The position numbers were made by a program, and so were the translations under genes. A stretch of 64,000 nt of DNA from an uncultured Alphaproteobacteria bacterium (GTDB taxonomy: Bacteria > Pseudomonadota > Alphaproteobacteria > Micavibrionales > CSBR16-224): NCBI GenBank assembly GCA_950054485.1, contig CATLPD010000007.1, forward strand, positions 12,262 to 76,261, in the 5' to 3' direction. Shown piece by piece: positions 21 through 52,536 of the stretch (positions within the stretch are counted from its first letter, which is position 1; each line of letters starts with the position of its first letter). Under the pieces are notes generated by a model. The model had not been told where the DNA came from and made no database searches. It worked only from the letters and a program-made list of their open reading frames with translations.

Positions 21-94
21 TGGAGCGGGCGACGAGAATCGAACTCGCACGACTAGCTTGGAAGGCTAGGGTTCTACCATTGAACTACGCCCGC
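21..94 (-). tRNA. tRNA-Gly (anticodon UCC)
   Basis: The reverse complement folds as a 74-nt cloverleaf: acceptor GCGGGCG/CGCCCGC, D-arm GTTC/GAAC, anticodon stem CTAGC/GCTAG with loop CTTCCAA, T-loop TTCGATT, encoded CCA. Confidence 0.9.
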
Positions 95-157: not shown

Positions 158-997
158 CTATGACATCAGATAATTGACGATTGATTTTGTCAGTGCATTA
201 TCTGCAAACTGATCAAAGCCCGCAAACATGGGCATAGAATTGACCTCCAGAAACTTATATCGACCCGTTTTCGCGCAGGTTTTAAAATCAGCCGCTGCAT
301 AATCCAGTTGCAATATATCTGTCAGCTTGCGAAGCCCCTGAACCAGATTTTCGGGCGGTGTGACCTGAACAATTTCAACATCGCCCATATCCAGCGCGCG
401 GTAATCCAGCGCAGCACTGGATATGCGAAAGGCAAAGAAATCATTTCCGATACGATATAGGCGTAATTCGGGGTTGATCAGCTTTTCCTGAATAATCGAT
501 GGTGACACAGTTGATATATCAGCATCCAGATCCTGCGTGTGGGCCCCGCCCGCAACTGGTTTTATGATTTTATTGTCTTTGGACACAGCGGAAATGTCAT
601 TGGTAAATAAAGTTTCGGGTATTTCCAGACCGGATTCTTTGGCCAGTTTCAAGGTATAGGGTTTATTCGCATAATAGTCTTCAAACAGACGGTTCAGGAT
701 TTTCACGTCAGGATTACAAAAGGCCCAGCCTTTGATAAAGTCAAACCAGTTGTTTAAATGATCAGACGATACATTTGAATCTTTTATCAAACTGAAAACA
801 TCCCAGCGCACAAACAGCGCGCTGGGTTTAACTTCTTCACCATTGATATAAAGGTTGGCGTTATCAAGATCCCATTTGACCTGCCAGGTGTCGGGCTGAT
901 CAATGTAAAGCGTTAATGAAAGGCGGCCCTGATCTGCACAGACTTTCGCCATATGCGTCAGATTAAAATCTTGGCTGCCGCCTGAAATAAAAAGCAT
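158..997 (-). CDS. ATP-grasp macrocyclase of the microviridin/plesiocin (graspetide) type
   Basis: 279-aa ORF 21 nt downstream of the repeat-core precursor on the same strand. ATP-grasp motifs resemble MdnC/MvdD/PsnB-like ligases: ANKPYTLKLAKESGLEIPETLFTND, IIKPVAGGAHT, IIQEKLINPELRLYRIGNDFFAF, DFKTCAKTGRYKFLEVNSMPMF. Confidence 0.75.
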   Translation of the reverse strand: MLFISGGSQDFNLTHMAKVCADQGRLSLTLYIDQPDTWQVKWDLDNANLYINGEEVKPSALFVRWDVFSLIKDSNVSSDHLNNWFDFIKGWAFCNPDVKILNRLFEDYYANKPYTLKLAKESGLEIPETLFTNDISAVSKDNKIIKPVAGGAHTQDLDADISTVSPSIIQEKLINPELRLYRIGNDFFAFRISSAALDYRALDMGDVEIVQVTPPENLVQGLRKLTDILQLDYAAADFKTCAKTGRYKFLEVNSMPMFAGFDQFADNALTKSIVNYLMS

Positions 998-1018
998 TAT
1001 AGTGCCTTCTAAACGTAA

Positions 1019-1813
1019 TTATCGTGGTCCGCGGCCTTCTTCGCCCACCGCCAGAGTGGTCATGGGAGGACGTTTTCTTGGATCAAGGTCTTTGGACTTG
1101 TCACCTTTTTTCTTATCATCATTTTCCGGTTTTTTCGGTGGCAGGGGCTTTTTACCTTCTTCACCAACGGCCAGAGTTGTCGGCCTGAGATCTTTAAAGT
1201 CCTCGCGTGGTGTGCGCGGTTTACGCGGCTTGGTTTCTTCAGGAATCGCAAGCGTTGTCATCATTCCGCTGCCGTCTCTTGGTGGTTTTCTATCTTCTTC
1301 ACCTAAAGCCAGTGTTGTGCCAGATTCTCCGTCATCATTATTTTTCTCTGGCGTGCGTGGTCTGCCTTCTTCGGGAATGGCCAATGTTGTCATCATTCCG
1401 CTACCATCTCTTGGTGGCTTCTTATCTTCTTCACCAATCGCAGCCGTCGTCGGAGAAAGAAAATCCTCATCATCTCTTTCAGGTGTGCGCGGCTTACCTT
1501 CTTCAGGTATGGCCATTGTGCACAAATACTCATCATCACCGGATAGTTGTCTTGGCTTTCTATCTTCTTCGCCCATAGCAGAGCTTGTCGGCCCCTCTCC
1601 AAACCAATCGGTGCCCGGCGCCTTCGGGGCATCATTCGCAACAGCTTTCAAATGTCCTAAGAACTCTTCTTTGGTAAATTCGAAACCTTCGGCATTACCG
1701 ATCGTCACGACTTTATCGATATCGTTTAAAGACATCCCCAGCTTGACCGCGAAAGACGGGTTCTTTTGGGCATGTTGAAACATAAGTATGACTTGTTTGT
1801 TTTTCCGGGACAT
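1019..1813 (-). CDS. Graspetide (omega-ester peptide) precursor: Nif11-like leader plus eight TTxxxxEE-type cores
   Basis: The N-terminal ~60 aa (VILMFQHAQKNPSFAVKLGMSLNDIDKVVTIGNAEGFEFTKEEF) match the Nif11-type leader pattern. Eight copies of an 8-residue motif follow: TSSAMGEE, CTMAIPEE, TTAAIGEE, TTLAIPEE, TTLALGEE, TTLAIPEE, TTLAVGEE, TTLAVGEE. They are separated by K/R/P/D-rich spacers. Confidence 0.8.
   Translation of the reverse strand: MSRKNKQVILMFQHAQKNPSFAVKLGMSLNDIDKVVTIGNAEGFEFTKEEFLGHLKAVANDAPKAPGTDWFGEGPTSSAMGEEDRKPRQLSGDDEYLCTMAIPEEGKPRTPERDDEDFLSPTTAAIGEEDKKPPRDGSGMMTTLAIPEEGRPRTPEKNNDDGESGTTLALGEEDRKPPRDGSGMMTTLAIPEETKPRKPRTPREDFKDLRPTTLAVGEEGKKPLPPKKPENDDKKKGDKSKDLDPRKRPPMTTLAVGEEGRGPR
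1037..1588 (-). repeat. Tandem core-peptide repeat region, including two 132-bp (44-aa) higher-order units at about 1259-1522
   Basis: DNA-level repeats are visible, e.g. gttgtcatcattccgctRccRtctcttggtgg...tcttcttcacc near 1255-1310 and again near 1387-1440. The protein repeats are listed under the precursor. Confidence 0.85.
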
Positions 1814-2564: not shown

Positions 2565-2828
2565 TCAAGCCGACTTGGATGTGCGCGGATCAATTGATCG
2601 ACCCTTTTTGGCAGGCGGATTATCCAAACGCTCGAGGATTTCGAGGATTTTATCCTGCTTTTCGGCCATTTCGTTGAACTGTATTTCCAATCTTTCCAGC
2701 CGTCTTAAGGCTGCAAAAGATAAAGCCAAAGGGGCATATTCCTGAGGCAAAGAACTGTCTGCATTTTTGTAACCCGCAACGCGTTTTCTTATACTCGCTA
2801 CATGTCCTTCAAACCACTCTTCAGCCAT
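2565..2828 (-). CDS. Small hypothetical coiled-coil protein (paralog 1 of a tandem pair)
   Basis: 87 aa. It shares the pattern FNE.AEKQ...LE....L....P..KG.S.DPR with the adjacent 89-aa ORF and overlaps it by 8 nt. Confidence 0.5.
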   Translation of the reverse strand: MAEEWFEGHVASIRKRVAGYKNADSSLPQEYAPLALSFAALRRLERLEIQFNEMAEKQDKILEILERLDNPPAKKGRSIDPRTSKSA

Positions 2829-3090
2829 GACGCCCGCCTATTCTAGGGTCCATACTCTTACCCTTGGGTGATTGCGGGTGCGCAATATCTTCAAGGGCTT
2901 GTGCAATACGCTCCAGCAAGGCATTTTGCTTTTCGGCATTTTCATTAAACTCAGCACGCATTTTTTGCATTTCCTCGAATAAAAAAACAACGGCAAGTGT
3001 ATTGCTGGCAGCATCGCCTATAGTAGCTTCGCGCCATTCATACTCTCTTTTTTTTGCTCGTCTTTTAATATCTTCAATGCTCATAATCAT
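2821..3090 (-). CDS. Small hypothetical coiled-coil protein (paralog 2 of a tandem pair)
   Basis: 89 aa. Similar central and C-terminal pattern (EFNENAEKQNALLERIAQALEDIAHPQSPKGKSMDPR) to the 2565-2828 ORF. Confidence 0.5.
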   Translation of the reverse strand: MIMSIEDIKRRAKKREYEWREATIGDAASNTLAVVFLFEEMQKMRAEFNENAEKQNALLERIAQALEDIAHPQSPKGKSMDPRIGGRHG

Positions 3091-3993: not shown

Positions 3994-4482
3994 TTATGGC
4001 TTGGGTTTGCAAACTTGATTTGGGGCTTTTGTTTTGATTTCGTATCGGGCCTTCGGGACATCTGTAATCTCTACATGATAAATTTTCTCGCCCATTTCAT
4101 CAAAGCCTTGAAATTTAACATCCAGATGGTCGGATGGGGTCAGCTTTTCAAGCACTTCAATTGATTTCTTATCCGTTATTTGAAAATATTCATCATCGTT
4201 CTGGCGCTTGTAAAGCTGAACATCACCGTTAATGTCTTCAATAGAATATTCACCATCATCAAATTGTCCGGCATGCGCCGCACCACTTCCAATTTGCGCG
4301 TCCACTTTCGATGCCAGAATGTAATAATTGAAACGCACGTACCATTGTCCGGATTTATCTTTGAGGGCGGTAATCGAATTTTGCCAAGTTGAAACCTCTG
4401 GGTCAGGCCAACGCAGACTTTCGACACCTTTAACGAAATGCGGCTTTGTAAATCTGCGCCATATATTTTTTAAAGGTTTCAT
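3994..4482 (-). CDS. Hypothetical protein, paralog family member A
   Basis: 162 aa. The N-terminus MKPLKNIWRRFTKPHFVKGVESLRWP and the later GQWYVRFNYY and LEKLTP motifs are shared with the ORFs at 4484-4966 and 5980-6495. Confidence 0.55.
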   Translation of the reverse strand: MKPLKNIWRRFTKPHFVKGVESLRWPDPEVSTWQNSITALKDKSGQWYVRFNYYILASKVDAQIGSGAAHAGQFDDGEYSIEDINGDVQLYKRQNDDEYFQITDKKSIEVLEKLTPSDHLDVKFQGFDEMGEKIYHVEITDVPKARYEIKTKAPNQVCKPKP

Positions 4483-4483
4483 T

Positions 4484-4966
4484 CTACAATTCCCTTGATC
4501 CGAATTTGCCGGATGGTGATCTTTTATGTTCTGGTCTGTTCCTATAATCTGGCGGATCTTTTACAACAATGATCCACCCTCTGTCGCCATGATAATCAAA
4601 TTTTTTGTATGCATATTCTTGAGGTGTCAGCTTTTCCAAGGCTTCGATAGATACAGGGTCAGTTATTTCTTCAAAGCCCCGCCCCATTGAGCGACGATGT
4701 GGAACAATTTCAGCATTCTGATCTTCCAATTCGTAAACTTCTTTTGAGAATTTATCATTATTTCTAGGATTTGCCATGCGGTCTTGGGCGTCTTCTTCCG
4801 GCATATATAAGTTAAAACGACCGAACCAACGGCCATCTTTCGTTTTGCCAAATGTATGCGATACAAGCCAGCATGTTGAATCCTGCATAGGCCAAATCAA
4901 GCTTTCAACTTCATGAACGAATTTCGGCTTTACAAATTGACGCCACAGCTTTTTCAATGATTTCAT
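4484..4966 (-). CDS. Hypothetical protein, paralog family member B
   Basis: 160 aa. Carries MKSLKKLWRQFVKPKFVHEVESLIWP, GRWFGRFNLYMPEEDAQDR and ALEKLTP. Its stop is 1 nt from the start of member A. Confidence 0.55.
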   Translation of the reverse strand: MKSLKKLWRQFVKPKFVHEVESLIWPMQDSTCWLVSHTFGKTKDGRWFGRFNLYMPEEDAQDRMANPRNNDKFSKEVYELEDQNAEIVPHRRSMGRGFEEITDPVSIEALEKLTPQEYAYKKFDYHGDRGWIIVVKDPPDYRNRPEHKRSPSGKFGSREL

Positions 4967-5979: not shown

Positions 5980-6495
5980 TTATTTAGATAAGTTTTTGGA
6001 TGATCCCGTTTGCGCCTTTGGCCGGACGGGATTTCCTTTTTCGTCAAAATGACGGCTCCAGTGATTGGGGCGCGGATTCTCTTTGAAACCAGGGGGCATT
6101 TTATATTCAACACGCGTTTCAGATGCGATAAAATACAGCATTTCCTGCACTGTTCCACATTTGATATAATCCCCAAACCCACGTGAATACGGCTTTAGTC
6201 GTTTGAATATTTGCACCTGCCCGTTAAAACGGGGAATGGAATATTCACCCGCCTCGACATCAAAGCACTCACCATCGCGCTCTTCATGAGCCAGTCTATC
6301 TTTTACGTTTTCCGGCAATTCAAATAAATCGGTTCTGACGTACCAAGCCCCTTTTTTATCCTGTCCCGCAACCCACATACACCAGAAGTCGCCTTTATCA
6401 GACTTGGTGATTAAAGGCCCTTCGACCTCGCGTACGAACTTGGGAAGAAAAGCCTTCCTGAAATTGACACGTAATTTTTTAATAGCAGCTTTCAT
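5980..6495 (-). CDS. Hypothetical protein, paralog family member C
   Basis: Likely start at MKAAIKKLRVNFRKAFLPKFVREVEGP (the ORF track extends to 6525). GAWYVRTDLFELPENVKDR parallels members A and B. Convergent with flaF. Confidence 0.5.
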   Translation of the reverse strand: MKAAIKKLRVNFRKAFLPKFVREVEGPLITKSDKGDFWCMWVAGQDKKGAWYVRTDLFELPENVKDRLAHEERDGECFDVEAGEYSIPRFNGQVQIFKRLKPYSRGFGDYIKCGTVQEMLYFIASETRVEYKMPPGFKENPRPNHWSRHFDEKGNPVRPKAQTGSSKNLSK

Positions 6496-6565
6496 TTCGA
6501 ACCTTAAAAAAATACAATTTAACATAATTTAAAAACTAAATCAACCAAGCTCATATCCACGCCGT

Positions 6566-17798: not shown

Positions 17799-18629
17799 AT
17801 GGATAACACGACAACACCCCAGACTCCAGATACGTCAAAGCCCCGCCAGCCCCTTCCAAGACAAATGGAACGCAACCTGATTGCTATTGCATCGGGTAAA
17901 GGCGGCGTCGGCAAAACATGGTTTTCAATTACCCTGTCACATGCCCTTGCAAAACAAGGTAAACGTGTCTTGCTTTTTGATGGTGACCTTGGCCTTGCGA
18001 ATGTCGATGTTCAATTGGGCCTGACCGTGCAGCGTGATTTGAATGACGTTATCGAAGGCCACATAAATCTGGCACAGGCCGTTCAACGATATGAAGCGGG
18101 TGGCTTTGATGTTATTGCCGGACGTTCGGGACAAGCATCTTTGTCAACATTACCCCTGCAACGTTTAAACGAGGTTTTGAAACAATTGCGTCTATTGGCA
18201 CAAAATTATGATGCTGTCCTGATTGACCTGGGGGCTGGCGTTGATAAAACCGTACGCTTTTTGGCCAGTGCGGCAGGTACCATGATCGTTGTATCTACCG
18301 AAGACCCGACATCAATGACCGATGCCTATGCGCTGATAAAATTAAGCCACGCAGCAGGACATGCAGACACCGCACATATCGTCGTCAATATGGCGGAGAC
18401 GGAACGCAGCGGCCAACGTACATACCAAACCCTACAGAATGCGTGCCAAAATTTCTTGCATCTGTCACCGCCTGCCTTTGGTTTTGTCAGGCTGGATCGT
18501 CACGTGCGTGAATCCATCCGTAACCAGACGCCTCTTCTGGTTCGATACCCGAATTCAGATGCTGCAATGGATATCGAACAGATCGCTGCACGCGTTGATG
18601 CGCGCCTTCAGCATTTGAAAGCGCTATGA
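17799..18629 (+). CDS. flhG: MinD/ParA-type flagellar number regulator FlhG (FleN/MotR-like)
   Basis: 276 aa. Carries the deviant Walker A motif IAIASGKGGVGKTWFS, then LLFDGDLGLANVD. It lies directly after flhF. Confidence 0.8.
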   Translation: MDNTTTPQTPDTSKPRQPLPRQMERNLIAIASGKGGVGKTWFSITLSHALAKQGKRVLLFDGDLGLANVDVQLGLTVQRDLNDVIEGHINLAQAVQRYEAGGFDVIAGRSGQASLSTLPLQRLNEVLKQLRLLAQNYDAVLIDLGAGVDKTVRFLASAAGTMIVVSTEDPTSMTDAYALIKLSHAAGHADTAHIVVNMAETERSGQRTYQTLQNACQNFLHLSPPAFGFVRLDRHVRESIRNQTPLLVRYPNSDAAMDIEQIAARVDARLQHLKAL

Positions 18630-20626
18630 CACAGCCCGTCGGACCGCCTGCTGCACCAAATGTTCAGAACATCGCCGAACGTGCCGAGCGTATCATTAAA
18701 CGCGCCGAAGCGAATACGAAAGACGAAGTCAAAAATATTGGCGATAATTCCAAAAACGTCCGCGGTAAAACCGAACGCCTGCCCGAACAATATCAAGATG
18801 CCCCCAATCCCCAAAAGGTAGAGGGCCGCGTTGTATCCGTTGAAGGTAATGTTGTTAAAATCGATACACCAGATGGCAGAGTTACGATAAAAACAGACGT
18901 GCCACCCGATATCAGAGCCGGCCAGAAAGTTGCAGTAGAACTGCCTGCTAACAGCCGTATTGGCGATGCTGTCCGAATATCCTATGCAACTGAAACGCAG
19001 GATATTGAACTCCCGCCGGATATAAAATTACCGCCCACATCAGCGACAGCCGACTATCCGCCCGTAAAAGAAAACGATGTCGTTTTGGCAACACCGCAAC
19101 CCATTTCAAATTACAGCGCTTATATAACAAGCACCGCGACATCTACACCGGCAAATTATCCGCCAGCAGAACTGATCACCATCGCTGATAAATTACCTGA
19201 AGCATTGGCAAGCGCCGCGCGCGTCATCACCGTAACACCCAAACTGCAGGCCGTTATTCAAAATTTTGATCTTGCTGAACAGCCATTACCGCAGATATAC
19301 GATGCGGCACCCGTGCCGCGCCCGGTCCTGACGCAGCCGCTGCAAACAACACCTACACAATTGCCGCAAACAGATGCTGTTGAAAATGTTTTGACTCAAG
19401 CCCATTTAAAATCACCTGTTGCCGAAGTGCAAAAGACCACACAAAAATTCAGCACGAATTTAATTGCTGCATTGGCCGAAATCGGACAGCCGCCGCAGCC
19501 CCAAACACCTTCGCCCTTTGCAACTGCAGGGGAAAAACCGACGGCACAAATTCTGCGTAGTTTTCAGCAGTTAAATGTCCTGGCTGTCATTCCCGAAAAT
19601 ATACCGCAGGCGAATTTAAAACCCATCGTTGCCGAGGCTTTATCGAAGAATATAAAATCACAAAAGTCAGCGCCAATACCACAGGGAGAAATTGTTCTAG
19701 CCAACGTTGCAGGCGCAACCAAAGACGGTCAAACTATTTTGTCATTACCGGCTACAAAAGACAGCGGAACGGATCAGCCGCGCCTATTATACGTACAGAC
19801 ACAAATTTTCGCTGATACTGGCGCACAGCTTTTACTGAATATTTCCGAGGCCCCGATTGGTAGCATTCCATCATCACCTGAACTGATTTCAGCCCTGCCC
19901 CAATCCCTGCAGACACAAATTACACAAAGTATTGCAGCGGCAGCGACACAAACAAACCCGGCATCGGCTTTGCCACCCGCTTTGATGCAGCCCTCTGCAT
20001 CATTTAGCTGGCCCGCCATGCAGGAGGCCATAGACGTTCTTTCACAAGTAGCACCGCAAGCCGCACAAAACATACAGAGCACTCTGCCCGCGCCTTCACC
20101 ACGCATGGTTTCCAGTGCGTTGTTTTTTATTGCTGCATTGAAACTGGGCAACTTGGAAAACTGGCTAGGCAGCAAGAATATGGACGCTATTGAAACCGCA
20201 GGTAAAAAAGGATTGCTGCAGCGTCTGTCGGGCGACTTTGGACGCATGTCTTCACAACTGACAGAACAAAGCACAGGCCAGTGGAAGACCCTGACCCTGC
20301 CAATGTTATTTGAAGGGGAAATATCAAATATTCAATTTCATGTCAGACCCGATGATCATCAAAAAGAAAACGAAAATGGTGAAATTGAAGAGGTTAAAAA
20401 AACGCGATTTGTCCTCGACCTGACACTCAGCAAGATGGGGCCGATGCAACTTGACGGGTTTTTAACGCCGAAAACACTTGATATGATTTTGCGAAACCAG
20501 GATCGTCTGGCCGAAAACGACCGACAAGAGCTGATGAAAATTTTCAGCAATACGCTTGAGCTGACCGGTTTGAAAGGCAGCCTGTCCTTTCAAAACAAAG
20601 CCGAAAACTGGGTGCATGTATCTTGA
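18626..20626 (+). CDS. Pro/Gln-rich protein with a FliK-like C-terminal domain (putative hook-length control protein)
   Basis: 666 aa with a 4-nt overlap with flhG. The C-terminus VLDLTLSKMGPMQLDGFLTPKTLDMILRNQDRLAENDRQELMKIFSNTLELTGLKGSLSFQ fits the FliK pattern L.L.P..LG...v.l.....l...l.......L...L...L...Gl....l.f. Confidence 0.5.
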   Translation: MTQPVGPPAAPNVQNIAERAERIIKRAEANTKDEVKNIGDNSKNVRGKTERLPEQYQDAPNPQKVEGRVVSVEGNVVKIDTPDGRVTIKTDVPPDIRAGQKVAVELPANSRIGDAVRISYATETQDIELPPDIKLPPTSATADYPPVKENDVVLATPQPISNYSAYITSTATSTPANYPPAELITIADKLPEALASAARVITVTPKLQAVIQNFDLAEQPLPQIYDAAPVPRPVLTQPLQTTPTQLPQTDAVENVLTQAHLKSPVAEVQKTTQKFSTNLIAALAEIGQPPQPQTPSPFATAGEKPTAQILRSFQQLNVLAVIPENIPQANLKPIVAEALSKNIKSQKSAPIPQGEIVLANVAGATKDGQTILSLPATKDSGTDQPRLLYVQTQIFADTGAQLLLNISEAPIGSIPSSPELISALPQSLQTQITQSIAAAATQTNPASALPPALMQPSASFSWPAMQEAIDVLSQVAPQAAQNIQSTLPAPSPRMVSSALFFIAALKLGNLENWLGSKNMDAIETAGKKGLLQRLSGDFGRMSSQLTEQSTGQWKTLTLPMLFEGEISNIQFHVRPDDHQKENENGEIEEVKKTRFVLDLTLSKMGPMQLDGFLTPKTLDMILRNQDRLAENDRQELMKIFSNTLELTGLKGSLSFQNKAENWVHVS

Positions 20627-20704: not shown

Positions 20705-20781
20705 GTTCCCGTAGCTCAGCTGGATAGAGCGCGTGCCTCCGGAGCACGAGGTCGGAGGTTCGAATCCTCTCGGGAACGCCA
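20705..20781 (+). tRNA. tRNA-Arg (anticodon CCG)
   Basis: 77-nt cloverleaf: acceptor GTTCCCG/CGGGAAC, D-arm GCTC/GAGC, anticodon stem CGTGC/GCACG with loop CTCCGGA, T-loop TTCGAAT, encoded CCA. Confidence 0.9.
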
Positions 20782-20912: not shown

Positions 20913-23132
20913 CTAACGCCCCATCACTGGTGTTTTTAAGCCTTTGACATTGGTTGCAGTCAATTTTGTTTTTTCAATTTCAAGGCCAGCCTCTTTAAAA
21001 ATTTTCACCTTTTCCTTTTCAAGGCCATCTTTGAATTTTTGCATAAGACCTTGATCTAAATGTAATGCGTCTTCACCCTGCCAATAAATGTCCTTAACAT
21101 TTCCAAACATATCAAATGTTATGGCCCCATAATATAGGCCATCAACCTTATAGTTCAGATAAATACTGCCTACATCTCTATCAATTCTAATTGTCGATGG
21201 CCCATCTTCGCGGTAATCATGCCCGTCTGGATTGCGGTAAAACTTGTCGACTAGATAACCTTCTTCATCATAACTTACGTAACTTGGCTTGTTATCTGCG
21301 CGCCCTTCACGCCTATCCGAAAACCACATTTCTGAAAGGATCTTTCCGTTATCATGATATCTGACCTGTTGAGGCCCGTCGTCTTCGCGAAAATATTGTC
21401 CATTTTGATGCCATTCTTCCGAAGCAAGCTGCCCCGCAGCATAGTAACGTATTTCTGCAGGCCCGTCGTCACGATGCAAGTTACCATTTTGATTCCACCG
21501 CTCTATATTTAGGCTTCCATTTTCATGATACGTAATGTTCGATGGGCCATCATCGCGGTGTTCTTCACCCTTTTCGTTGTAATAATTTACAAATCTTATT
21601 TGCCCGCTTTCATAGTAATCTATTTCTGCTGGGCCATCGGATCTGAAATATTCGCCGTTTCTTTTCCAATGTTCTTCAACTACATTTCCTTTTTTGTCAT
21701 AGGCGACAAGCGCAGGGCCTCCTTCCCTATGCAATTCACCCCATTCATTAAAATAACAGGTCTTGGCATCAGCGCCGTATGAAGCTTTCAAGTATACCGG
21801 TTGCCCCGGCTGCACTGTTGCCGCATCCACCGATAAAGCCTGCATCATTTGAAAGTTCAATTTCGATGTTTGTGCCTGGATATTTGCAAGTTCTGTTCCC
21901 AGCCGGGCGGGACTGTTCAGATAGGCAATTTCGGGAGAGATCGCCGCCAATTGCCATTTCTTAATCTTAAGATAATCCGGTTGTTTCAACAGCGCTGTCT
22001 GGCGCAGATCATATCCGGCCGCCGCATAATTTTTAATAGTATCGCGCAGATATGTTGCATTGGGAATTTTTCCATCCCACTTTTCTTTCTGCAGAGCCCT
22101 GAATTCAACAGCAATGTATTTTTCAGCATTTGGCGTCGCCTCTTTTACACGCGAAAGAACCATATCGATAATTGGATGGTCAAGCGGCAGAAAACGGTGC
22201 AGGCAATTCCCCAAAAGCATGCCCATGTAATCTATAACTTCGGCCGTATCCATACGTTTATCGGCCTGCATTTTTTCCGATATGCGGTCCAGCTGATCAC
22301 AAAACTTTATACAGCTTTGTTTTAACCTATCTTCATGCTCGCTTCCTGCCAATTCGCGCCAGACTCTTGCATGGTTCAAAATCATAAAACTTTCGTAACT
22401 GCCGATTTTTTCATCCCCTGAATGGGTAAATCCGCCAGACTGCCATTCTGACGCCAAGCTTTTATCGGGGTATTTTGCCGCTTGGTTATGCACATTTGAT
22501 TTTTGAGAAATCGTCTCATTAATCGTTTCACTTGTTATATGATGCTGCATGTCATGGTTTGCCGCAGTTGCCACATTCTGCAAGGCGCGCAATAAAGACG
22601 ACGGCTGATATTTTGCAATTACCATTGCAATATCATCATCAATCCCCAGCAAGGAAATACTATTGCTGCTTTTCTTTTGTGACCAGATATTATTCGGGTC
22701 TTCGTATTCGTAAATCTGGGCAAAGCCGAAGGTCATATTAAGCCCGTTATATTTTGTCGTTTTGGCAAAGACAGGGAACCCCTTTTCTTGCAGTGCTGTC
22801 TTTACATGGCTTTCCGGAAGAATTGTGAATTCAGACAGAATGGTGTTTCCCGTTCTTTCAGCCATACGGTTAAATATGACTTTTGAAAGACCTGCTTTTT
22901 CAATTTGTTCGAGTTCTTGATCTTTCAATCCGAATTTCCTTGCATCCTGCAGCAGCATTTCGTGAAAACTTGCAAAATAAGCCTGAAGACGCACAGTTTC
23001 GGCCTCGGCCAAAACGCGATTATCCTGACGCAAGCCTTTCATATATATCAGAACGTCTCTTAATCTACTTTTTGATAAAGACGTGGACACGGGTGGCTTG
23101 AAATTATTCATATGTACCGGTGCATCGGACAT
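20913..23132 (-). CDS. Large protein with an unknown N-terminal domain (~455 aa) and C-terminal MORN-variant / HR-x-DGPA repeats
   Basis: 739 aa. About seven repeats of 28-30 aa lie between aa ~458-680 (nt ~21093-21761), e.g. LHREGGPALVAY, FRSDGPAEIDYY, HRDDGPSNITYH, HRDDGPAEIRYY, REDDGPQQVRYH and YREDGPSTIRI. The gene is visibly more AT-rich than the neighbouring flagellar genes. Confidence 0.55.
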   Translation of the reverse strand: MSDAPVHMNNFKPPVSTSLSKSRLRDVLIYMKGLRQDNRVLAEAETVRLQAYFASFHEMLLQDARKFGLKDQELEQIEKAGLSKVIFNRMAERTGNTILSEFTILPESHVKTALQEKGFPVFAKTTKYNGLNMTFGFAQIYEYEDPNNIWSQKKSSNSISLLGIDDDIAMVIAKYQPSSLLRALQNVATAANHDMQHHITSETINETISQKSNVHNQAAKYPDKSLASEWQSGGFTHSGDEKIGSYESFMILNHARVWRELAGSEHEDRLKQSCIKFCDQLDRISEKMQADKRMDTAEVIDYMGMLLGNCLHRFLPLDHPIIDMVLSRVKEATPNAEKYIAVEFRALQKEKWDGKIPNATYLRDTIKNYAAAGYDLRQTALLKQPDYLKIKKWQLAAISPEIAYLNSPARLGTELANIQAQTSKLNFQMMQALSVDAATVQPGQPVYLKASYGADAKTCYFNEWGELHREGGPALVAYDKKGNVVEEHWKRNGEYFRSDGPAEIDYYESGQIRFVNYYNEKGEEHRDDGPSNITYHENGSLNIERWNQNGNLHRDDGPAEIRYYAAGQLASEEWHQNGQYFREDDGPQQVRYHDNGKILSEMWFSDRREGRADNKPSYVSYDEEGYLVDKFYRNPDGHDYREDGPSTIRIDRDVGSIYLNYKVDGLYYGAITFDMFGNVKDIYWQGEDALHLDQGLMQKFKDGLEKEKVKIFKEAGLEIEKTKLTATNVKGLKTPVMGR

Positions 23133-41199: not shown

Positions 41200-41274
41200 G
41201 CCGGAGTAGCTCAGGGGTAGAGCAGTGCTTTCGTAAAGCAAAGGCCGGGTGTTCAAATCACCTCTCCGGCACCA
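41200..41274 (+). tRNA. tRNA-Thr (anticodon CGU)
   Basis: 75-nt cloverleaf: acceptor GCCGGAG/CTCCGGC, D-arm GCTC/GAGC, anticodon stem GTGCT/AGCAA with loop TTCGTAA, T-arm GGGTG-TTCAAAT-CACCT, encoded CCA. Confidence 0.9.
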
Positions 41275-42945: not shown

Positions 42946-45123
42946 TTATTCGTCTTCCCATCCGGCGTTCCGGTTTGGATAATCCAAAGCCCATCCATTA
43001 TTATTCGGCCATTCAACCTCAAAACATTTTTCATCCCATGTTTTTCTGGCCCGTCCTAGTTCGGTAGCTTGCCAACCACGCGGGCGGGGACCATCCCACT
43101 TCCTCAGCCCCATCTGACTAAAGTAATCGCCTACTTTTTTAACACTTAAACCGAGGTCTTTAGCCACTTTACTTGTTTCAATTATTGGGGTCGGCTGGTA
43201 ACGGTCAGTTGGAATCTCGCCCTCCCATAAACAATCAAACCAGTACTTTTCCAGTTTTGATAGGCTTTCTATCCGCTGATCCGCCAAGGCTTGGTTTTGC
43301 GGAATATCCTTCCGTGGGTGCCAGCCTTTTAAGTCTAGGTTTAAAAAGAAGTAAAGCATTGCGGATGCACCCCCGTCCTGCATTTCTTTTTGTATGGCTG
43401 CAAACCACTTTTCGTTTTGCATTTTAGATGAGCAAACATCAAAAACAGCAAAACGCCTTTCATCGACCGATGCCGGTACGACCCAATCAGAATTCGACGA
43501 CATTACAACATGTAATGTATTACGGACTTGTATAACATCATAGCCTTTTGGCTCAATCGCCAGCGTCGGCTCTGTTAGCATCCCCTTTAATACGTTCTCT
43601 GCGGCCTTGTCGTTTGGTGCTATCGCCTCATCAGCATATAACAGCACACAATCACGCAGGTGGGCATTAAAGTTTCCCGTTATATGTTTAGGACTAAATA
43701 CCTGTAAACCATGATGGCCAAATAGGTTTTTGTACCAACCACATACCGTGCCCTTACCAGTACCCTTTGCTCCGCGAAATACAAGAGCAACTCCGGCAGG
43801 CTGATCTAGGTTCTGTACCGTCCAAGCAAGCCACTTCATAATGTATTTAAAAGCTTTTGGATCTTTTTTCGCCAAAACCAACCATATGTGTTTTCGCATT
43901 CGTTTCCATCTACCTTTGCTTGGTTTATAAGCAAAGCCCTGCCAAAGATTATAGCACTTGTCTCGCACAGTCTCACCGGGAGCAAAAACGATACGCTCGA
44001 ACTCGCGCCTTCCCGGGCTTTTAAACCAATGCTTGCCAAGCTCTTCTACCTTGTCTTTTCCAGCGGTTGTACTGATACGAACCCTTTTGTTGGCAAAGAA
44101 TTGTTTAAATTCGCTTGGAGATTGTAAACGCAGTACTCGTTTCTTTTGACCATTGCCGATATCATCTTCTTCGAAAAATGCCACACGGCATTTGCCACCT
44201 TCATTCCCAACCACGAAGAAATCTCGATTTAATTGTGCCACCGCTATATCCGGCACATCACTATATCCAGTATCCATATTTATCATGTTGCCGTATAACC
44301 ATTTATGCAAGGTCGGCTGCAAATCGATTATTCCAAGAAGTTCGCATAACTTGGGTAGCCCCATAACATCTTCGCCTTCATTCAACCTCTCTTGCGTACC
44401 CTTCGCCTTCAAACGCATATCGACCTCTTCGTCACCTTTCTTCTCTGCAATATATGCAATCAGATTATCGGTTGTTTCGACATTAAGGCCGGCACGAAGA
44501 AGCATTCCAGCCATAGCGAGCGCAATATTATCTCTCTGCCCCGCTGTTTCTGGGTAAAGCCTAAGGACTATAGATAGAGCCGCACAGATACCGACTTTGT
44601 GAAGAACATCACTCCACCCCACAACCGGAAATTCCAGTCTATAGCTTGACCATTCTATCAGCTCACCACTTGGGTGTATGGATGGCGGGATCATTGTATA
44701 GCCACCAGAAGACCTTAGCTCGATTATCATATGTTTATCACCATCAGACAAACCAAGTATTTCTGCTTCCTTTGGCTTTAAACCAAACTGTTTTGTTTTC
44801 TCGGCATCATTGCACATAGCCATCCTATGGCCATTTAATGCCGACATGCGTCCAAAACTGGGCCAATCTGCAAACAGGATACTGCCGATCTCTGCAGCTT
44901 CTCTACAATCGAAGTCCAAATCAATTAGCCCTGCGCTGGCATCACCTAAAGCAACTGCAATGTTTTCTTCGTTTGCGAAATGTTTCGATAGGTTTTCGGC
45001 GTTGGTTTTATTGTCTTTCCATTTAAAACCTTTAGCTGGTATTTTGTTTTTTGGCTGCAAAGGGAAAACGTGCCAGCCTTTTTCCACATACTCTTTTGCG
45101 CTATTTACCATGTTATCAGTCAT
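42946..45123 (-). CDS. Primase-helicase (bifunctional Prim-Pol N-terminal domain + P4/D5-type SF3 helicase)
   Basis: The N-terminus KGWHVFPLQPKNKIPAKGFKWKD is Prim-Pol-like. Walker A VFRGAKGTGKGT and Walker B VLLYADEA are present. The likely start is MTDNMVNS (the ORF track extends to 45165). Confidence 0.8.
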   Translation of the reverse strand: MTDNMVNSAKEYVEKGWHVFPLQPKNKIPAKGFKWKDNKTNAENLSKHFANEENIAVALGDASAGLIDLDFDCREAAEIGSILFADWPSFGRMSALNGHRMAMCNDAEKTKQFGLKPKEAEILGLSDGDKHMIIELRSSGGYTMIPPSIHPSGELIEWSSYRLEFPVVGWSDVLHKVGICAALSIVLRLYPETAGQRDNIALAMAGMLLRAGLNVETTDNLIAYIAEKKGDEEVDMRLKAKGTQERLNEGEDVMGLPKLCELLGIIDLQPTLHKWLYGNMINMDTGYSDVPDIAVAQLNRDFFVVGNEGGKCRVAFFEEDDIGNGQKKRVLRLQSPSEFKQFFANKRVRISTTAGKDKVEELGKHWFKSPGRREFERIVFAPGETVRDKCYNLWQGFAYKPSKGRWKRMRKHIWLVLAKKDPKAFKYIMKWLAWTVQNLDQPAGVALVFRGAKGTGKGTVCGWYKNLFGHHGLQVFSPKHITGNFNAHLRDCVLLYADEAIAPNDKAAENVLKGMLTEPTLAIEPKGYDVIQVRNTLHVVMSSNSDWVVPASVDERRFAVFDVCSSKMQNEKWFAAIQKEMQDGGASAMLYFFLNLDLKGWHPRKDIPQNQALADQRIESLSKLEKYWFDCLWEGEIPTDRYQPTPIIETSKVAKDLGLSVKKVGDYFSQMGLRKWDGPRPRGWQATELGRARKTWDEKCFEVEWPNNNGWALDYPNRNAGWEDE

Positions 45124-45137
45124 TATTTTTCTCCTTA

Positions 45138-45326
45138 TTAATATTGTGTTGTTGATGTAAAGCATTGGCTGTCCAGATAGCTCTGGATATCTTCGATCCG
45201 GTAACGGACACTACGGCCTATCTTTATGTATGGAATGGGACTACCGATACGGCGGTCTTTTTGTAGTTTGTAAATACTGCACCCCAACATGGTTGCAGTT
45301 TCTTTTTCAGTTATAAGATTTTTCAT
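45138..45326 (-). CDS. alpA: AlpA-family phage/island transcriptional regulator (excisionase-like HTH)
   Basis: MKNLITEKETATMLGCSIYKLQKDRRIGSPIPYIKIGRSVRYRIEDIQSYL matches the AlpA/Xis-type winged-HTH pattern. Confidence 0.7.
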   Translation of the reverse strand: MKNLITEKETATMLGCSIYKLQKDRRIGSPIPYIKIGRSVRYRIEDIQSYLDSQCFTSTTQY

Positions 45327-49040: not shown

Positions 49041-49823
49041 TTAAATAAGATCCTTGTTTTTGGACTTATTGTTGATGAATTCCGCAATTTTAAAATACAT
49101 GAAATGCGGCATAATACGCATCAGTTTTAAAAACCATGTAAATCGCTTGGGGAAATGAATTTCAAAACGATCAGATGTCAGACCATCCACAATATACGTG
49201 GCCGCCTTTTCGGCCGAGATAATCATCGGCATTTCAAAATCGTTTTTATCCGTCAGCGGTGTTTCAACAAAACCGGGGCAGATCATTCTAACGTCCAGCC
49301 CCAATGGCTTCCATTCAACGTGCAGGCTTTCGGCGTAGTTAATCAGACCGGCCTTGGTTGCGCAATAAGGTTGCCCCTTGGGCAGGCCGCGATAGCCGGC
49401 AACTGAAGCGCACAAAACCAACTGACCTGATCCCTGCTTTTCAAAAACAGGTTTGATTTTCTCGGCGATGTTAAGGGCACCGCCAAGGTTCACCGCGATC
49501 ATCTTGTGAATAAAATCAAGATCTTTCGGCTTGCCGTCGTGTTTACTGTAAATAGCGGCCAGAAATATGACGCTGTCGATATTGTAATATTTATCCTGAA
49601 TCACTTTGAGCGCGCCATCAACGTTCTTTTGATCTGTTACATCCAACGTAACTACGGTATGATCGCCCGCGGCCAGATCAGATTTTACGTCGTTTAGCTT
49701 ATCTTCCCTACGTGCTGAAAGAATGATGTTTGCACCTTTAGATGCAAGATCCTTTGCAAGGGCTGCACCGATGCCGCTGCTGGCGCCAATGATCCAAATA
49801 TTTTTACGCGTCAATGTTTTCAT
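49041..49823 (-). CDS. Short-chain dehydrogenase/reductase (SDR) family oxidoreductase
   Basis: 260 aa. Carries IIGASSGIGAALAKDLA (TGxxxGxG-type), NLGG and the catalytic YCATKAG (YxxxK). It overlaps the bphP 3' end by 20 nt. Confidence 0.85.
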   Translation of the reverse strand: MKTLTRKNIWIIGASSGIGAALAKDLASKGANIILSARREDKLNDVKSDLAAGDHTVVTLDVTDQKNVDGALKVIQDKYYNIDSVIFLAAIYSKHDGKPKDLDFIHKMIAVNLGGALNIAEKIKPVFEKQGSGQLVLCASVAGYRGLPKGQPYCATKAGLINYAESLHVEWKPLGLDVRMICPGFVETPLTDKNDFEMPMIISAEKAATYIVDGLTSDRFEIHFPKRFTWFLKLMRIMPHFMYFKIAEFINNKSKNKDLI

Positions 49824-52536
49824 CAGATATCATACCCTCGACAATAATGTCTTTGATTTTACCGGCTGTCTTTTTCAAATCCAGCGGCTTTGGAATATAG
49901 TAATCCATCCCTGCATCCAGACATTTTTGCCGGTCTTCTTTCAGCGCGTTAGCGGTCATACCGATAATCGGTGTCTTTTTGAAAACGCCAGTGCGTTGTT
50001 TTTCCTTGATGATTTTTGTGGCCGTCAAGCCGTCCATAATCGGCATCTGCACATCCATAATGATCAGATCAAAGTCTTCGCGCTCAAGCTTTTCAATCGC
50101 TTCTTTACCATTGTTTGCAATCACAACCTGATAGCCCTGATTTTGCAAAAAATGCATCGCGACAACAACATTGCCTTCATAATCTTCAACCAGCAGAATT
50201 TTTCTTTTCTGCCCCTCAGAGTCTAAAGCTTCGCGTATAATTTCGGGGTCGACATCACCGACATGTTCAGAGTCACTCTGCTCACATTCCAGCGGCAATT
50301 TGATAATGAACTTTGAACCAAGGCCTTTTTTACTGGTAACATCGATGCTACCGCCCATCAGTTCAACCAGCCCTTTTGATATGGACAGGCCCAATCCCGT
50401 TCCGCCATGCTGCTTAGTTACGGTATTATCTTCCTGAATGAATTTATTAAAGATCGTGTCAATTTTGCTTTCGCTGATACCAACACCACTATCTATCACT
50501 TCAAAGACAGTCATCTCCTGACCGGTGTGATCTTCCTCGAAATAGGCCATAATATTTACAAAACCCTGATCGGTAAATTTCAAAGCATTATTCACAAGGT
50601 TAATCAGAACCTGACGAATACGTGAAACATCACCGCATAAAATGCGTTGGTCTGCCCGATCATAGTTTACATTCAGTTTTAACTGCTTTTCGTTGGCTTT
50701 CACCATCATCATACTGCGGAGGTCCTCAAGAAGGTCGGCCATTTTAAATCGGTTTTCCTCCATCTGGACTTCACCGGATTCAATTTTTGCAATGTCCAGC
50801 AAGTCATTCAACAGCGCCATCAGGGACCGTGAACTGACCCCCATCGTCCTGACAAGTTTTTTGTGCTTTTCACTGAGGTTATCATCGTCATTTAATATCT
50901 GGATAATACCTGTGATCGCCCCCAGAGGCGTTCTTAATTCGTGTGACATATGTGACAGAAATTCTGTCTTGGCCTCATTTGCGCGCTCCGCATAAATTTT
51001 CTCATGCTCAAGTATAATTCGCGTTATCGATTTTGCAGCCTCGACATCCGATTCTGACCATGGGTCGCACTTGCCTTGCGTTTCGGTTTGCCACAAATCA
51101 AATGAACTGCGTGGTGTCAAACGATAACCGGCTTTTGTTTTTTCAACAGGCTTTTCCGGATCACCCGCCCAATTGACTTTGTTCTTTTTCGCACTTCTGA
51201 ACCAGACGGCCAAATCATCGCTCTGAATGCCGATCGGCAATGCCAGAAACCCGCCTGAAAACGTTATGTCGTCGACCTTTTCATCTTTGAAAAACTTTTC
51301 CGCATCACGCGTATAGATAACCGATTTATTGACAGAGTTTTTACACCAGCTCATAAATCTTTCAAGGTTCTTTCCCTGGGGTGTATTCCCGAAACAATTA
51401 GATGTCTTGTTAGTATAAATCACAATACCGTCTGCCATCAAAGCCTGCAGGGCAATTTCATTATGACCGAATAAAATATCGTCCGCTTTGACGGCGCCAT
51501 TCAACTGGGATGCAATTTTTTCAATCAGCAGACTTTTCTGACTGATACGTTTTTGTTTTTCAACCAATTCCATGGAAGACAGTTTGGCCGAGAAAATATG
51601 ACCCAGAATTTCTGACAGTACGCGCATTCTATATGGAACGTGGAGCGGCTCGTCATGATGACAGGCTACTAGCCCCCATAATTGCCCCCCTTGCATGATC
51701 GAAATCGACATGGATGCTTTAACATTAATATTGTCCAGATACTGGATATGCACCGGCGAAACACTGCGCAGAACCGAGAATGTCATATCAACCGGCCTGT
51801 CATCCCCTTCAATTCTTTCAGGATACATATCAATCGGTTTATAACTGATATCTGAAATCAGGCGCAGATAGTTTTTTGAATATAGCAAACGCGCTTGCAG
51901 CGGTATATCGGATGCAGGAAAATTAAGCCCCAAATAAGACGGCATGTGATCCTGGCGCGCTTCCGCAACGACCATACCGTTCCAGTCTTCATCAAACTTG
52001 TATAATTTAACCCGCGCAAAGCCCGTCAATTTTCGTACTTCTTCAATAATAACCTTATAAAGGTTTTCAAGATCGGATACTTTTTGAAAGATAATCGCAA
52101 AATCCCTGAGCTCCTCGTAGATACGGTTTTCATCAAGGTTTGTTTCTTTATCAAACTCTTCCAGTTCAACAACTTTGTAATCACCAGAGAAATGGACAAC
52201 CGCATCATATTCCATGTCATTGACCGTAATAGATGCCGATTTCAGCGGCTGCAATTCATAGGCCCGGGCAACATCATTTATATGACCCAGATCTTTTTTT
52301 CCAAGAATATCAACCAGGTTTTTACCGATTAGATCTTTGGGTGTAATCCCTATGAAAGCCTCGGCATTTTCGCTGACCTGAACGATTTGGTCTGATTTGG
52401 CATTCGCAATGATCATGCATCCATGCGGTTGTATACGATTTGGGATGTGAATAGGCTCTTTCGCGCAGACTTCCAAAGCATCTTTCAGCTCCTGCTCGCT
52501 AAGTTGCTCACGGGATATTAAATTCTTGTCTTTCAT
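49804..52536 (-). CDS. bphP: Bacteriophytochrome histidine kinase with a C-terminal receiver (PAS-GAF-PHY-HisKA-HATPase-REC)
   Basis: 910 aa. Cys24 lies in EVCAKEPIHIPNRIQPHGCMII, the biliverdin-binding context. The GAF block SVSPVHIQYLDNINVKASMSISI, H-box FLSHMSHELRTPLGAI, GTGLGLSISKGLV and receiver ILLVEDYEGN...LIIMDVQMPIMDG are present. Confidence 0.9.
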   Translation of the reverse strand: MKDKNLISREQLSEQELKDALEVCAKEPIHIPNRIQPHGCMIIANAKSDQIVQVSENAEAFIGITPKDLIGKNLVDILGKKDLGHINDVARAYELQPLKSASITVNDMEYDAVVHFSGDYKVVELEEFDKETNLDENRIYEELRDFAIIFQKVSDLENLYKVIIEEVRKLTGFARVKLYKFDEDWNGMVVAEARQDHMPSYLGLNFPASDIPLQARLLYSKNYLRLISDISYKPIDMYPERIEGDDRPVDMTFSVLRSVSPVHIQYLDNINVKASMSISIMQGGQLWGLVACHHDEPLHVPYRMRVLSEILGHIFSAKLSSMELVEKQKRISQKSLLIEKIASQLNGAVKADDILFGHNEIALQALMADGIVIYTNKTSNCFGNTPQGKNLERFMSWCKNSVNKSVIYTRDAEKFFKDEKVDDITFSGGFLALPIGIQSDDLAVWFRSAKKNKVNWAGDPEKPVEKTKAGYRLTPRSSFDLWQTETQGKCDPWSESDVEAAKSITRIILEHEKIYAERANEAKTEFLSHMSHELRTPLGAITGIIQILNDDDNLSEKHKKLVRTMGVSSRSLMALLNDLLDIAKIESGEVQMEENRFKMADLLEDLRSMMMVKANEKQLKLNVNYDRADQRILCGDVSRIRQVLINLVNNALKFTDQGFVNIMAYFEEDHTGQEMTVFEVIDSGVGISESKIDTIFNKFIQEDNTVTKQHGGTGLGLSISKGLVELMGGSIDVTSKKGLGSKFIIKLPLECEQSDSEHVGDVDPEIIREALDSEGQKRKILLVEDYEGNVVVAMHFLQNQGYQVVIANNGKEAIEKLEREDFDLIIMDVQMPIMDGLTATKIIKEKQRTGVFKKTPIIGMTANALKEDRQKCLDAGMDYYIPKPLDLKKTAGKIKDIIVEGMISDENIDA

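Follow-up and report, generated by a model that had tools for sequence, protein, structure and literature searches.

What a Nif11-like leader does in front of an ATP-grasp enzyme, and what such a pair of genes makes, is the question raised by a short cassette near one end of a 64,000-nucleotide stretch of DNA (hereafter 'the window') from an uncultured alphaproteobacterium (assembly GCA_950054485.1, contig CATLPD010000007.1). On the minus strand, a precursor gene of 264 codons plus stop (1019..1813) is followed, after a 21-nucleotide spacer (998..1018) that carries the ribosome-binding site GAAGG 8 nucleotides 5' of the next ATG, by the gene for a 279-residue ATP-grasp enzyme, a predicted graspetide synthetase or macrocyclase (158..997). 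Both open reading frames (ORFs) were reproduced exactly as a preliminary description of the locus had given them, with the same lengths, strand and gap. The first is identified by the reading frame itself, by a Pfam match to Nif11 and by homologous multi-core precursors (P0122 and P0142), and the second by profile, fold and residue comparisons. We conclude that the locus is probably an operon of two genes that specifies a plesiocin-type (Group 2-like) graspetide. The 21-nucleotide spacer and a conserved gene order (precursor, then enzyme) suggest that the two genes are co-transcribed.

Relationship of the ATP-grasp enzyme to plesiocin macrocyclase

A profile constructed from 51 relatives of the enzyme matched PsnB, the macrocyclase of plesiocin, over its full length in a search of the PDB (E = 5.8e-35). 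The remaining matches were AMdnB, PruB, CdnC, MdnB and MdnC (1e-13 to 1e-16), all of which are graspetide maturases, and neither RimK nor the glutathione synthetase GshB was present among the six PDB profile matches at E ≤ 0.01. Comparison of folds gave a similar picture. When the AlphaFold2 (AF2) model of the enzyme (predicted local distance difference test score, pLDDT, of 92.7) was compared to known structures with Foldseek, the top 15 matches were PsnB chains (E 2e-19, TM 0.75) and the top 31 were made up of PsnB, PruB, MdnC, AMdnB, CdnC and MdnB; ArgX, LysX and RimK followed, the last of these at a rank of at least 37. The best NCBIfam matches were TIGR04187 (1.7e-18) and then MvdC and MvdD (TIGR04185 and TIGR04184) and grasp-with-spasm, while the RimK family model (TIGR00768, rimK_fam) gave an E value of 0.12 and 11.7 bits against a cutoff of 143.4. 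Homology to graspetide synthetases is thus indicated by profile, by fold and by the best NCBIfam matches.

Counterparts of PsnB residues were then mapped through alignments with PsnB and their conservation was counted in 51 homologs. E251 and N253, which we take to be the usual metal (Mg) ligands of the ATP-grasp fold, are invariant in that set. So are R64, K146 and R179, which correspond respectively to PsnB Arg72 (which contacts the backbone of the core), Lys172 (which binds nucleotide) and Arg213 (which guides the ring-forming Glu to ATP). A further element, the loop D(F/W)R that is critical for PsnB activity (DFR, residues 233–235), is present as D198-Y199-R200, with D198 and R200 invariant and Y199 found in at least 90% of the homologs (roles in PsnB as described in bioRxiv 10.1101/2021.03.09.434688). 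The proposal that the second gene encodes an ATP-grasp enzyme with MdnC/PsnB-like motifs was therefore borne out: its nearest solved relative by both profile and fold is PsnB, the PsnB residues are conserved, and it is placed with the maturases of RiPPs (peptides that are ribosomally synthesized and then modified post-translationally) instead of a non-RiPP clade such as RimK or glutathione synthetase.

Core motifs of the precursor

The part of the precursor that follows its leader is a 190-residue region rich in Pro, Glu, Asp, Lys, Thr, Gly and Arg. It carries eight cores, spaced 20 to 40 residues apart, that start at residues 76, 98, 122, 142, 166, 186, 212 and 252. Listed with their residues and minus-strand positions, these are TSSAMGEE (core 1, 76–83, 1565..1588); CTMAIPEE (core 2, 98–105, 1499..1522), which has Cys at position 1 and Pro at position 6; TTAAIGEE (core 3, 122–129, 1427..1450); the Pro variant TTLAIPEE (core 4, 142–149, 1367..1390); TTLALGEE (core 5, 166–173, 1295..1318); a second copy of the Pro variant TTLAIPEE (core 6, 186–193, 1235..1258), which lies in a duplicated two-core unit of 132 nucleotides; TTLAVGEE (core 7, 212–219, 1157..1180); and TTLAVGEE again (core 8, 252–259, 1037..1060), after which comes the basic tail GRGPR-COOH. 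All Nif11-type relatives keep the last core together with a basic tail.

All eight of the 8-residue motifs listed in the preliminary description were located, and their number is far beyond chance. The pattern [STC][ST]xxx[GP]EE occurs eight times in the precursor. Shuffling the protein 200,000 times with its composition preserved gave 0.009 occurrences on average and never more than 2. Elsewhere in the window, among six-frame ORFs of 60 residues or longer, a single further one has any match to the pattern. TTxxxxEE is indeed the published Group 2 core (bioRxiv 10.1101/2021.03.09.434688), as had been stated for plesiocin; as a label for all eight repeats it is too strict, since five of the eight match it literally and the set also includes TSSAMGEE (core 1) and CTMAIPEE (core 2).

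At the level of DNA the repeats have largely diverged. Tandem Repeats Finder (minimum score 30) returned no repeats from the precursor gene, the sole recent DNA-level duplication is the 132-nucleotide two-core unit (81% identity over 80 nucleotides), and synonymous codons differ between identical cores. These last two observations argue that the core motif is maintained by selection at the level of the protein.

The enzyme family and its precursors

A search of 5.8 billion proteins with the enzyme identified 165 relatives, mostly 280 to 300 residues in length and 35–57% identical to it. Most are metagenomic, a few come from Thiothrix, Craurococcus and alphaproteobacterial metagenome-assembled genomes (MAGs), and they are usually annotated as hypothetical. 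We analyzed 80 metagenomic loci encoding such relatives together with other loci (89 in total). In 64 of the 89, an ORF with between 2 and 23 [ST][ST]xxxGEE cores lies directly upstream of the enzyme gene on the same strand, separated from it by 2 to 250 nucleotides; most of the others end upstream of the enzyme gene before the position of a precursor is reached. The window cassette, with eight paired donor/acceptor cores encoded 21 nucleotides upstream of the enzyme gene, displays the adjacent precursor that is expected of a graspetide locus. A precursor of the multi-core TTxxxGEE kind, from Thiothrix disciformis, is also listed by Makarova et al. 2022 in their supplement. The suggestion that a highly multiplied core in a bare two-gene locus is uncommon could consequently not be upheld: since 64 of the 89 loci have a multi-core precursor beside the gene for the enzyme, this arrangement is the norm for the family.

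The precursors of the relatives are built in several ways. Of 57 distinct precursors, 41 end in a C-terminal [N/S/G]PFGx[F/Y]-COOH motif, and many of those with a PFGxF tail have almost no N-terminal leader, their cores beginning at residues 5 to 15 (examples are found at L010 2678–2974, L016 2200–2982, L023 1255–1467 and L036 2–190). This tail looks like a C-terminal 'follower' by which precursors of a large plesiocin-like family are naturally recognized. It is reminiscent of the RPFG motif that serves recognition in graspimiditide leaders and of an engineered swap from leader to follower (PMC13003496); we found no earlier description of a PFGxF follower in the literature examined. Other relatives have precursors with large globular N-terminal domains, among them DUF6174 in Thiothrix (384 residues), a PrcB_C-like domain and a protein of 647 residues.

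Scanning contigs of species-representative genomes with the single enzyme sequence yielded one distant locus, in a Beijerinckiaceae MAG (L005 4788–5084). Its enzyme is 35% identical and its 98-residue precursor has xGEEDGGDF repeats (TFRTGEEDGGDF, STDGIGEEDGGV, TTSRIDEEDGGDF and IERIGEEDGGDF) that mostly lack the TT pair, and that could possibly form single esters or another topology.

The Nif11-type leader domain

The first 61 residues of the precursor (1631..1813, minus strand) form a domain that is homologous to Nif11 by Pfam and profile comparisons and that AF2 predicts to be a four-helix bundle, with helices at residues 3–17, 19–27, 32–41 and 48–61 and a mean pLDDT of 81–90 in blocks of ten residues over residues 11–60. 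The linker that joins it to the first core (residues 62–75, DAPKAPGTDWFGEGP; 1589..1630, minus strand) has no Gly-Gly cleavage motif; its block mean pLDDT is 54 for residues 61–70 and 47 for residues 71–75, with residues 72–75 below 50.

The Pfam match to PF07862 (Nif11) covers residues 12–51 and exceeds the gathering score by a narrow margin (25.2 bits versus 23.8, E 2e-5). A profile made solely from eight graspetide-linked leaders matched the Nif11 leader MppE (PDB 9zn4) at 7.3e-8, the next match being at 0.3; 9zn4 was also the top PDB match of the window leader alone (E 0.09). A Foldseek search of the PDB with the leader model gave no significant match, 9zn4 being second of four (E 4.5, TM 0.46). 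The leader from the locus with the nearest enzyme relative (L006, enzyme 56% identical) also scores 25.2 bits with PF07862, a further relative (P0133) scores 22.6 bits, and a second subtype of graspetide-linked leaders gives 15.8 to 22.6 bits.

An exhaustive HMMER search of 1.84 billion representative sequences with the 75-residue leader retrieved the sister precursors P0142 and P0122, and also P0145, P0143, P0141 and P0144. P0145, matched at 6e-5, is a canonical tandem-Nif11 precursor with a Gly-Gly site. P0143 is a large repeat protein that matches over a short low-complexity stretch only and was discarded as spurious; we assume that P0141 and P0144, which are likewise large repeat proteins, are spurious as well. 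The leader type of the window is therefore confined to three protein clusters in that search. The second Nif11-like subtype comprises at least five precursors. The set of 80 metagenomic loci with enzyme relatives contained no Nif11-like leader of either type. These counts agree with the earlier assertion that a Nif11-type leader is uncommon in such loci.

Nif11 leaders of the N11P subfamily end in a ELSDEELEAVAGG motif with Gly-Gly (PMC2887384). The window leader scores 18.6 bits with the N11P model TIGR03798, below its cutoff of 32.3. The window linker has 'AVAND' where N11P leaders have 'AVAGG', and a Gly-Gly cleavage motif is absent from the precursor, which reads ...KEEFLGHLKAVANDAPKAPG..., as it is from P0122 and P0142. 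Because the TIGR03798 score is below cutoff, Gly-Gly is lacking and no peptidase-containing ABC transporter is found nearby, we conclude on the basis of sequence comparison that the leader is a Nif11 domain that lies outside the N11P leader-peptide subfamily of Haft et al. The description of the leader as Nif11-type is thus correct in the sense of the Pfam gathering threshold, which it passes, and of the profile match to 9zn4; it does not extend to the N11P model or to the Gly-Gly site.

In a locus with the second leader subtype (L090 4536–8371), the precursor and enzyme genes are flanked by duplicated gene pairs, one of them encoding two 58-residue Gly/Ala-rich membrane peptides and the other two proteins of 312 and 314 residues that are 66% identical to each other and whose N-termini are hydrophobic and resemble signal peptides. 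No member of these flanking pairs has a Pfam match, and they are absent from the window locus.

Evidence against the assignment and leader-enzyme co-variation

Several observations weigh against assigning the locus to the plesiocin type. The Pfam scan of the enzyme returned no match, and the enzyme falls below the cutoffs of all NCBIfam models of RiPP ATP-grasp enzymes (66.9 versus 350 for TIGR04187, 36.2 versus 230 for TIGR04192, and 45.8 versus 425 and 45.5 versus 475 for TIGR04184 and TIGR04185). It shares only some 22% of its residues with PsnB, and the neighborhood of the cassette contains no linked gene for a protease, a transporter or immunity. The three cores with Pro at position 6 may not be modified, since PsnB contacts the Gly backbone at that position and no relative has Pro there. 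The segment that aligns with the leader-binding region of PsnB is deleted in the window enzyme, whose AF2 model has no helix between residues 148 and 166, and PsnB R101 is located in a 12-residue insertion of PsnB that is absent from the enzyme family. We read the enzyme as a member of a distinct clade that, as far as sequence models go, has none of its own.

The deleted segment lies between G151 and P166, both of which are invariant (residues 152–165 of the window enzyme), and aligns with part of the region with which PsnB binds its leader. Of 46 enzymes with PFGxF-type precursors, 45 have 24 residues in this segment; every Nif11-linked enzyme has 16 or 17, and the window enzyme 16, so that the deletion of 7 to 8 residues is seen only in enzymes with Nif11 leaders. 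In a neighbor-joining tree (which has no support values and is indicative only), the Nif11-leader enzymes group together, apart from the PFGxF clade. The residues of the PsnB leader pocket have no counterparts in the window enzyme. Features of Group 2a are missing as well: the precursor has nothing like LFIEDL, the leader motif that the leader-binding domain of that group accommodates in a hydrophobic pocket, the leader-binding segment is short, and R101, the residue that holds the second Glu in enzymes of Group 2a (bioRxiv 10.1101/2021.03.09.434688), has no counterpart.

The window enzyme thus seems to have lost the usual element for docking a leader. We tentatively propose, as an idea that we hold at somewhat below even confidence, that the Nif11-linked enzymes form a distinct subgroup in which the folded Nif11/LigA-like domain, which may never be cleaved, uses a different docking site on the enzyme and directs the iterative cross-linking of all eight hairpins, those of the Pro cores included. 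If true, this would be the first natural pairing of a Nif11 leader fold with an ATP-grasp maturase and, considered together with the PFGxF relatives, would describe an enzyme family that has swapped between recognition modules (a C-terminal 'follower', an N-terminal domain and Nif11).

Proposed biosynthesis and alternative explanations

If the locus does encode a plesiocin-type graspetide, its precursor would be produced as a folded, helical, Nif11-like leader domain of about 60 residues followed by a disordered tail with eight cores, as the structural model predicts. The co-variation of leader and enzyme suggests that the precursor recruits the enzyme, presumably through the Nif11-like domain, and recognition would then be leader-dependent. 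In each core, the enzyme would use ATP to phosphorylate the side-chain carboxylate of a Glu positioned by R179 (the equivalent of PsnB R213), and a Thr or Ser hydroxyl would attack it. The inner lactone, joining positions 2 and 7, would close before the outer one, which joins positions 1 and 8. Each core would thereby turn into a bicyclic hairpin, lighter by 18 Da for every ester, and the process would be repeated core by core. The ester chemistry and ring topology are taken here by analogy to be those of PsnB. Up to 15 esters would form if all cores are substrates, and 10 if the five Gly cores alone are modified. The figure of up to 16 esters given in the preliminary description is too high: position 1 of core 2 is Cys, which limits the number of O-esters to at most 15, and the count also overlooks the atypical Pro cores. 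By analogy with plesiocin, a potent serine-protease inhibitor whose potency grows as more motifs are cyclized (PMC13097080), the product would most likely be a multivalent serine-protease inhibitor, acting through the hydrophobic hairpin loops LAIG, LAVG and LAIP.

Whether the Pro cores take part in this scheme is the point at which the strongest alternative arises, namely that only the five Gly cores are substrates, with the Pro cores remaining as unmodified spacers or becoming singly linked, and with about 10 esters in an alternating arrangement. Among 488 cores of relatives, position 6 is Gly in 483, Ala in 5 and Pro in none, and three of the eight window cores carry Pro there in alternation with Gly cores. 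In PsnB, the backbone amide of core Gly36 contacts Arg72 (bioRxiv 10.1101/2021.03.09.434688), which is R64 here, and variant Group 2 motifs are only partly modified in RcpA (PMC11626197) and Gra-5 (PMC9576775). However, the Pro cores retain Thr at position 2 and Glu-Glu at positions 7 and 8, two copies of TTLAIPEE have been kept through synonymous codon changes (which suggests that selection acts on them too), and the enzyme may have co-adapted. We regard modification of the Gly cores alone as a substantial possibility that falls somewhat short of even.

A second alternative accepts the same chemistry and differs in the fate of the leader: the Nif11-like domain would never be cleaved, and the mature product would be a cross-linked protein of about 28 kDa with the folded domain as a built-in module for recognition or another function, which would amount to a protein-level grasp modification and not a leader/core RiPP in the strict sense. 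Neither Gly-Gly nor any other recognizable cleavage motif follows the leader. Among the called genes within 10 kb on either side of the cassette there is no C39 or other peptidase-containing ABC transporter (TIGR03796-type) and no protease. No ABC transporter was found among the 10 of 16 window ORFs of at least 400 residues that were scanned, a set that included all ORFs of about 650 residues or more; a peptidase-containing transporter requires an ORF of at least about that length. Comparison of the Nif11-type loci revealed no accessory gene common to them, and other members of the enzyme family are paired with precursors that bear large globular N-terminal domains. Against this, the genes for RiPP proteases and exporters often lie at other places in the genome (PMC8939145; PMC2887384), the transporter and protease negatives cover the window and the 10 kb on either side of the cassette, and the basic linkers after the cores (EEDRKP, EEGKPR) could be cut by unlinked proteases. 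An uncleaved product is accordingly one that we entertain as possible while leaning the other way.

That the cassette is silent or decaying and gives rise to no product is improbable. In its favor, no convincing promoter or terminator was found at the cassette. The putative promoter noted previously (TTGACT-N18-TACATA) exists in the sequence, but is a weak match to consensus that was missed by our promoter scan because its -10 hexamer lacks the required final T, and the four promoter-like sites in the region compare to 4.1 expected from shuffled sequence. In contrast, both ORFs are intact and have ribosome-binding sites, the catalytic residues are intact, the core motif has been kept through synonymous changes, and identical proteins are present on independently assembled contigs (15 for the precursor and 22 for the enzyme).

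Finally, it is scarcely credible that the enzyme is an amino-acid ligase of the RimK/GshB/LysX type (adding, for instance, Glu to a C-terminus) and that the repeat protein is acidic, of low complexity and unrelated to it: in databases some relatives go by 'RimK family' or by 'glutathione synthase/RimK-type ligase', and the absent Pfam match and sub-cutoff maturase scores might be read in that way, but the rimK_fam match is far poorer than that to the best RiPP maturase model, such ligases are either missing from or ranked below the graspetide maturases in the profile and fold comparisons, the graspetide-specific R179 and D-x-R loop are invariant, and the enzyme gene is found strictly beside TTxxxGEE repeat genes across phyla.

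Comparison with known systems

The plesiocin-type reading can be set beside five known systems. Plesiocin itself (PsnA2/PsnB of Plesiocystis pacifica, Group 2/2a) shares with the window the repetition of TTxxxxEE cores within one precursor, and the AIGEE sequence that was bound in the active site of the PsnB crystal structure also occurs in window core 3. In plesiocin each core receives two Thr-Glu lactones from one ATP-grasp enzyme. The window locus likewise has a single ATP-grasp enzyme, in which the counterparts of PsnB R72, K172, R213 and the DFR loop are conserved. The two systems differ in the number of cores (four in plesiocin versus eight), in the limited identity of their enzymes given above, and in their leaders (short with an LFIEDL motif in plesiocin, versus a folded Nif11-like domain of about 60 residues). 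The PsnB leader-binding segment and the segment containing R101 are missing from the window enzyme, and three window cores have Pro for Gly.

The family of ATP-grasp enzymes of about 290 residues described above (from Thiothrix, Craurococcus and soil and marine metagenomes) is alike in gene order, core motif and, at 35–57% identity, in its enzymes. Its precursors differ in being mostly leader-poor and PFGxF-tailed (41 of 57), and its enzymes in having a 24-residue segment where the window enzyme has 16. The Rheinheimera system RcpA/RcpB (Group 2) also has a single ATP-grasp enzyme and TTxxxxEE-type motifs, which are esterified in RcpA (PMC11626197); unlike the window precursor, RcpA has three motifs and a GG-terminated leader that is cut by a cluster-encoded C39 ABC transporter, whereas the window locus has neither GG nor transporter.

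The N11P precursors (TIGR03798, for example those of prochlorosin type; compare the MppE leader 9zn4) share a homologous N-terminal helical domain with the window precursor. They have a ELSDEELEAVAGG/Gly-Gly motif and a hypervariable core of about 23 residues, as opposed to no GG and a 190-residue repeat core, and their partner is LanM, a cyclodehydratase or a radical-SAM enzyme in place of an ATP-grasp enzyme; the window lacks their linked peptidase-transporter. A helical leader domain is also found in Frankia_peptide (PF14407), which the ECOD 'LigA-like' group places together with Nif11 (PMC12353581), and whose Pfam description traces to Iyer et al. 2009 on ATP-grasp amidoligases (PMC12353581); it thus sets a precedent for a fold related to Nif11 among RiPP precursors. 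Frankia_peptide is a different Pfam family with other cores, and the Pfam scan of the window precursor gave no PF14407 match.

None of the papers examined that mention both graspetides and Nif11 describes a Nif11-type graspetide leader, the mentions being confined to reference lists or to a remark on Gly-Gly processing of leaders. Likewise, neither 'Nif11' nor PF07862 appears in the supplementary text examined of a survey from 2026 that sorted over 20,000 graspetides into 43 groups and listed co-occurring hidden Markov models, precursor models among them (Carter 2026). Group 2 clusters often co-occur with NHLM-type peptidase-transporters, however, and because of this, and of the ECOD grouping of Nif11 with Frankia_peptide, the pairing of a Nif11 leader with an ATP-grasp enzyme is not conceptually surprising. 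The enzyme, the core motif, the multi-core build and the bare two-gene layout are ordinary in a large and poorly annotated plesiocin-like family, and the locus represents neither new chemistry nor a new class of system. What is truly unusual is the Nif11-type leader, the 7- to 8-residue deletion in the enzyme and the three Pro cores.

The value of the locus lies chiefly in what it offers, as an experiment of nature, on recognition between leader and enzyme and on the tolerance for different cores. It extends the promiscuity of Nif11/NHLP leaders, which serve lanthipeptide, azole and radical-SAM pathways, to ATP-grasp macrocyclases. The correlated deletion offers a testable handle on substrate recognition by graspetide synthetases, with a bearing on efforts to re-engineer leaders, and eight tandem hairpins with a natural alternation of Gly and Pro provide a ready test of core tolerance and of multivalent protease inhibition. 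Since its members have no Pfam match, score under the NCBIfam cutoffs and are annotated 'hypothetical' or 'RimK-like', the enzyme family may be missed by genome-mining pipelines that depend on such models.

Genomic setting and other features of the window

The cassette is flanked by a gene for an HD-domain phosphohydrolase (1892–2533; NCBIfam match PRK10119, under the model cutoff) and by tRNA-Gly(TCC) (21–94, minus strand), which lies 63 nucleotides 3' of the stop codon of the ATP-grasp gene; adjoining the cassette is a cluster of flagellar genes, FlbT and FlaF among them. The FlhA protein encoded in the window is 88–96% identical to some database sequences and about 73–74% identical to those of alphaproteobacterial MAGs and of Micavibrio, and the host is an uncultured alphaproteobacterium. 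The GC content (0.42–0.50 in the cassette versus 0.39–0.58 in the flanks) carries no signal of recent transfer, and we rejected the idea of a genomic island because composition provides no indication of one. A plus-strand ORF of 258 residues (1002–1778) was set aside as an antisense shadow of the repeat gene, homology and Pfam both supporting the minus-strand frame. Past the window edge are a 298-residue membrane protein, then an SNase-like nuclease and then XerC. The first of these (L001 10994–11890), a multi-pass protein, was considered as an exporter and dismissed: it lies beyond the tRNA-Gly, has no Pfam match and is not conserved in other Nif11-type loci.

Two overlapping paralogous ORFs of 87 and 89 residues (2565–2828 and 2821–3090, minus strand) are located between the genes for an enoyl-CoA hydratase and the HD phosphohydrolase; their C-terminal halves are similar (...ERLxxxLExIxxPxxxKGxSxDPR) and have no Pfam match. 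Three further paralogous ORFs of 160 to 181 residues (3994–4482, 4484–4966 and 5980–6525, minus strand), which share the N-terminal motif WRxFxKPxFVxxVESLxWP and have no significant Pfam match, are found inside the flagellar cluster beside flbT/flaF. ORFs of 666 residues (18626–20626, plus strand) and 739 residues (20913–23132, minus strand), neither with a Pfam match at E ≤ 1e-5, flank tRNA-Arg (20705–20781). A 739-residue protein with Prim-Pol and DUF5906 domains is encoded at 42946–45165 (minus strand), 1.7 kb from tRNA-Thr (41200–41274), a placement that suggests an integrated mobile element or prophage remnant. Finally, a hybrid histidine kinase of the bacteriophytochrome type, with a PAS_2-GAF-PHY-HisKA-HATPase-receiver architecture, is encoded at 49804–52536 (minus strand).

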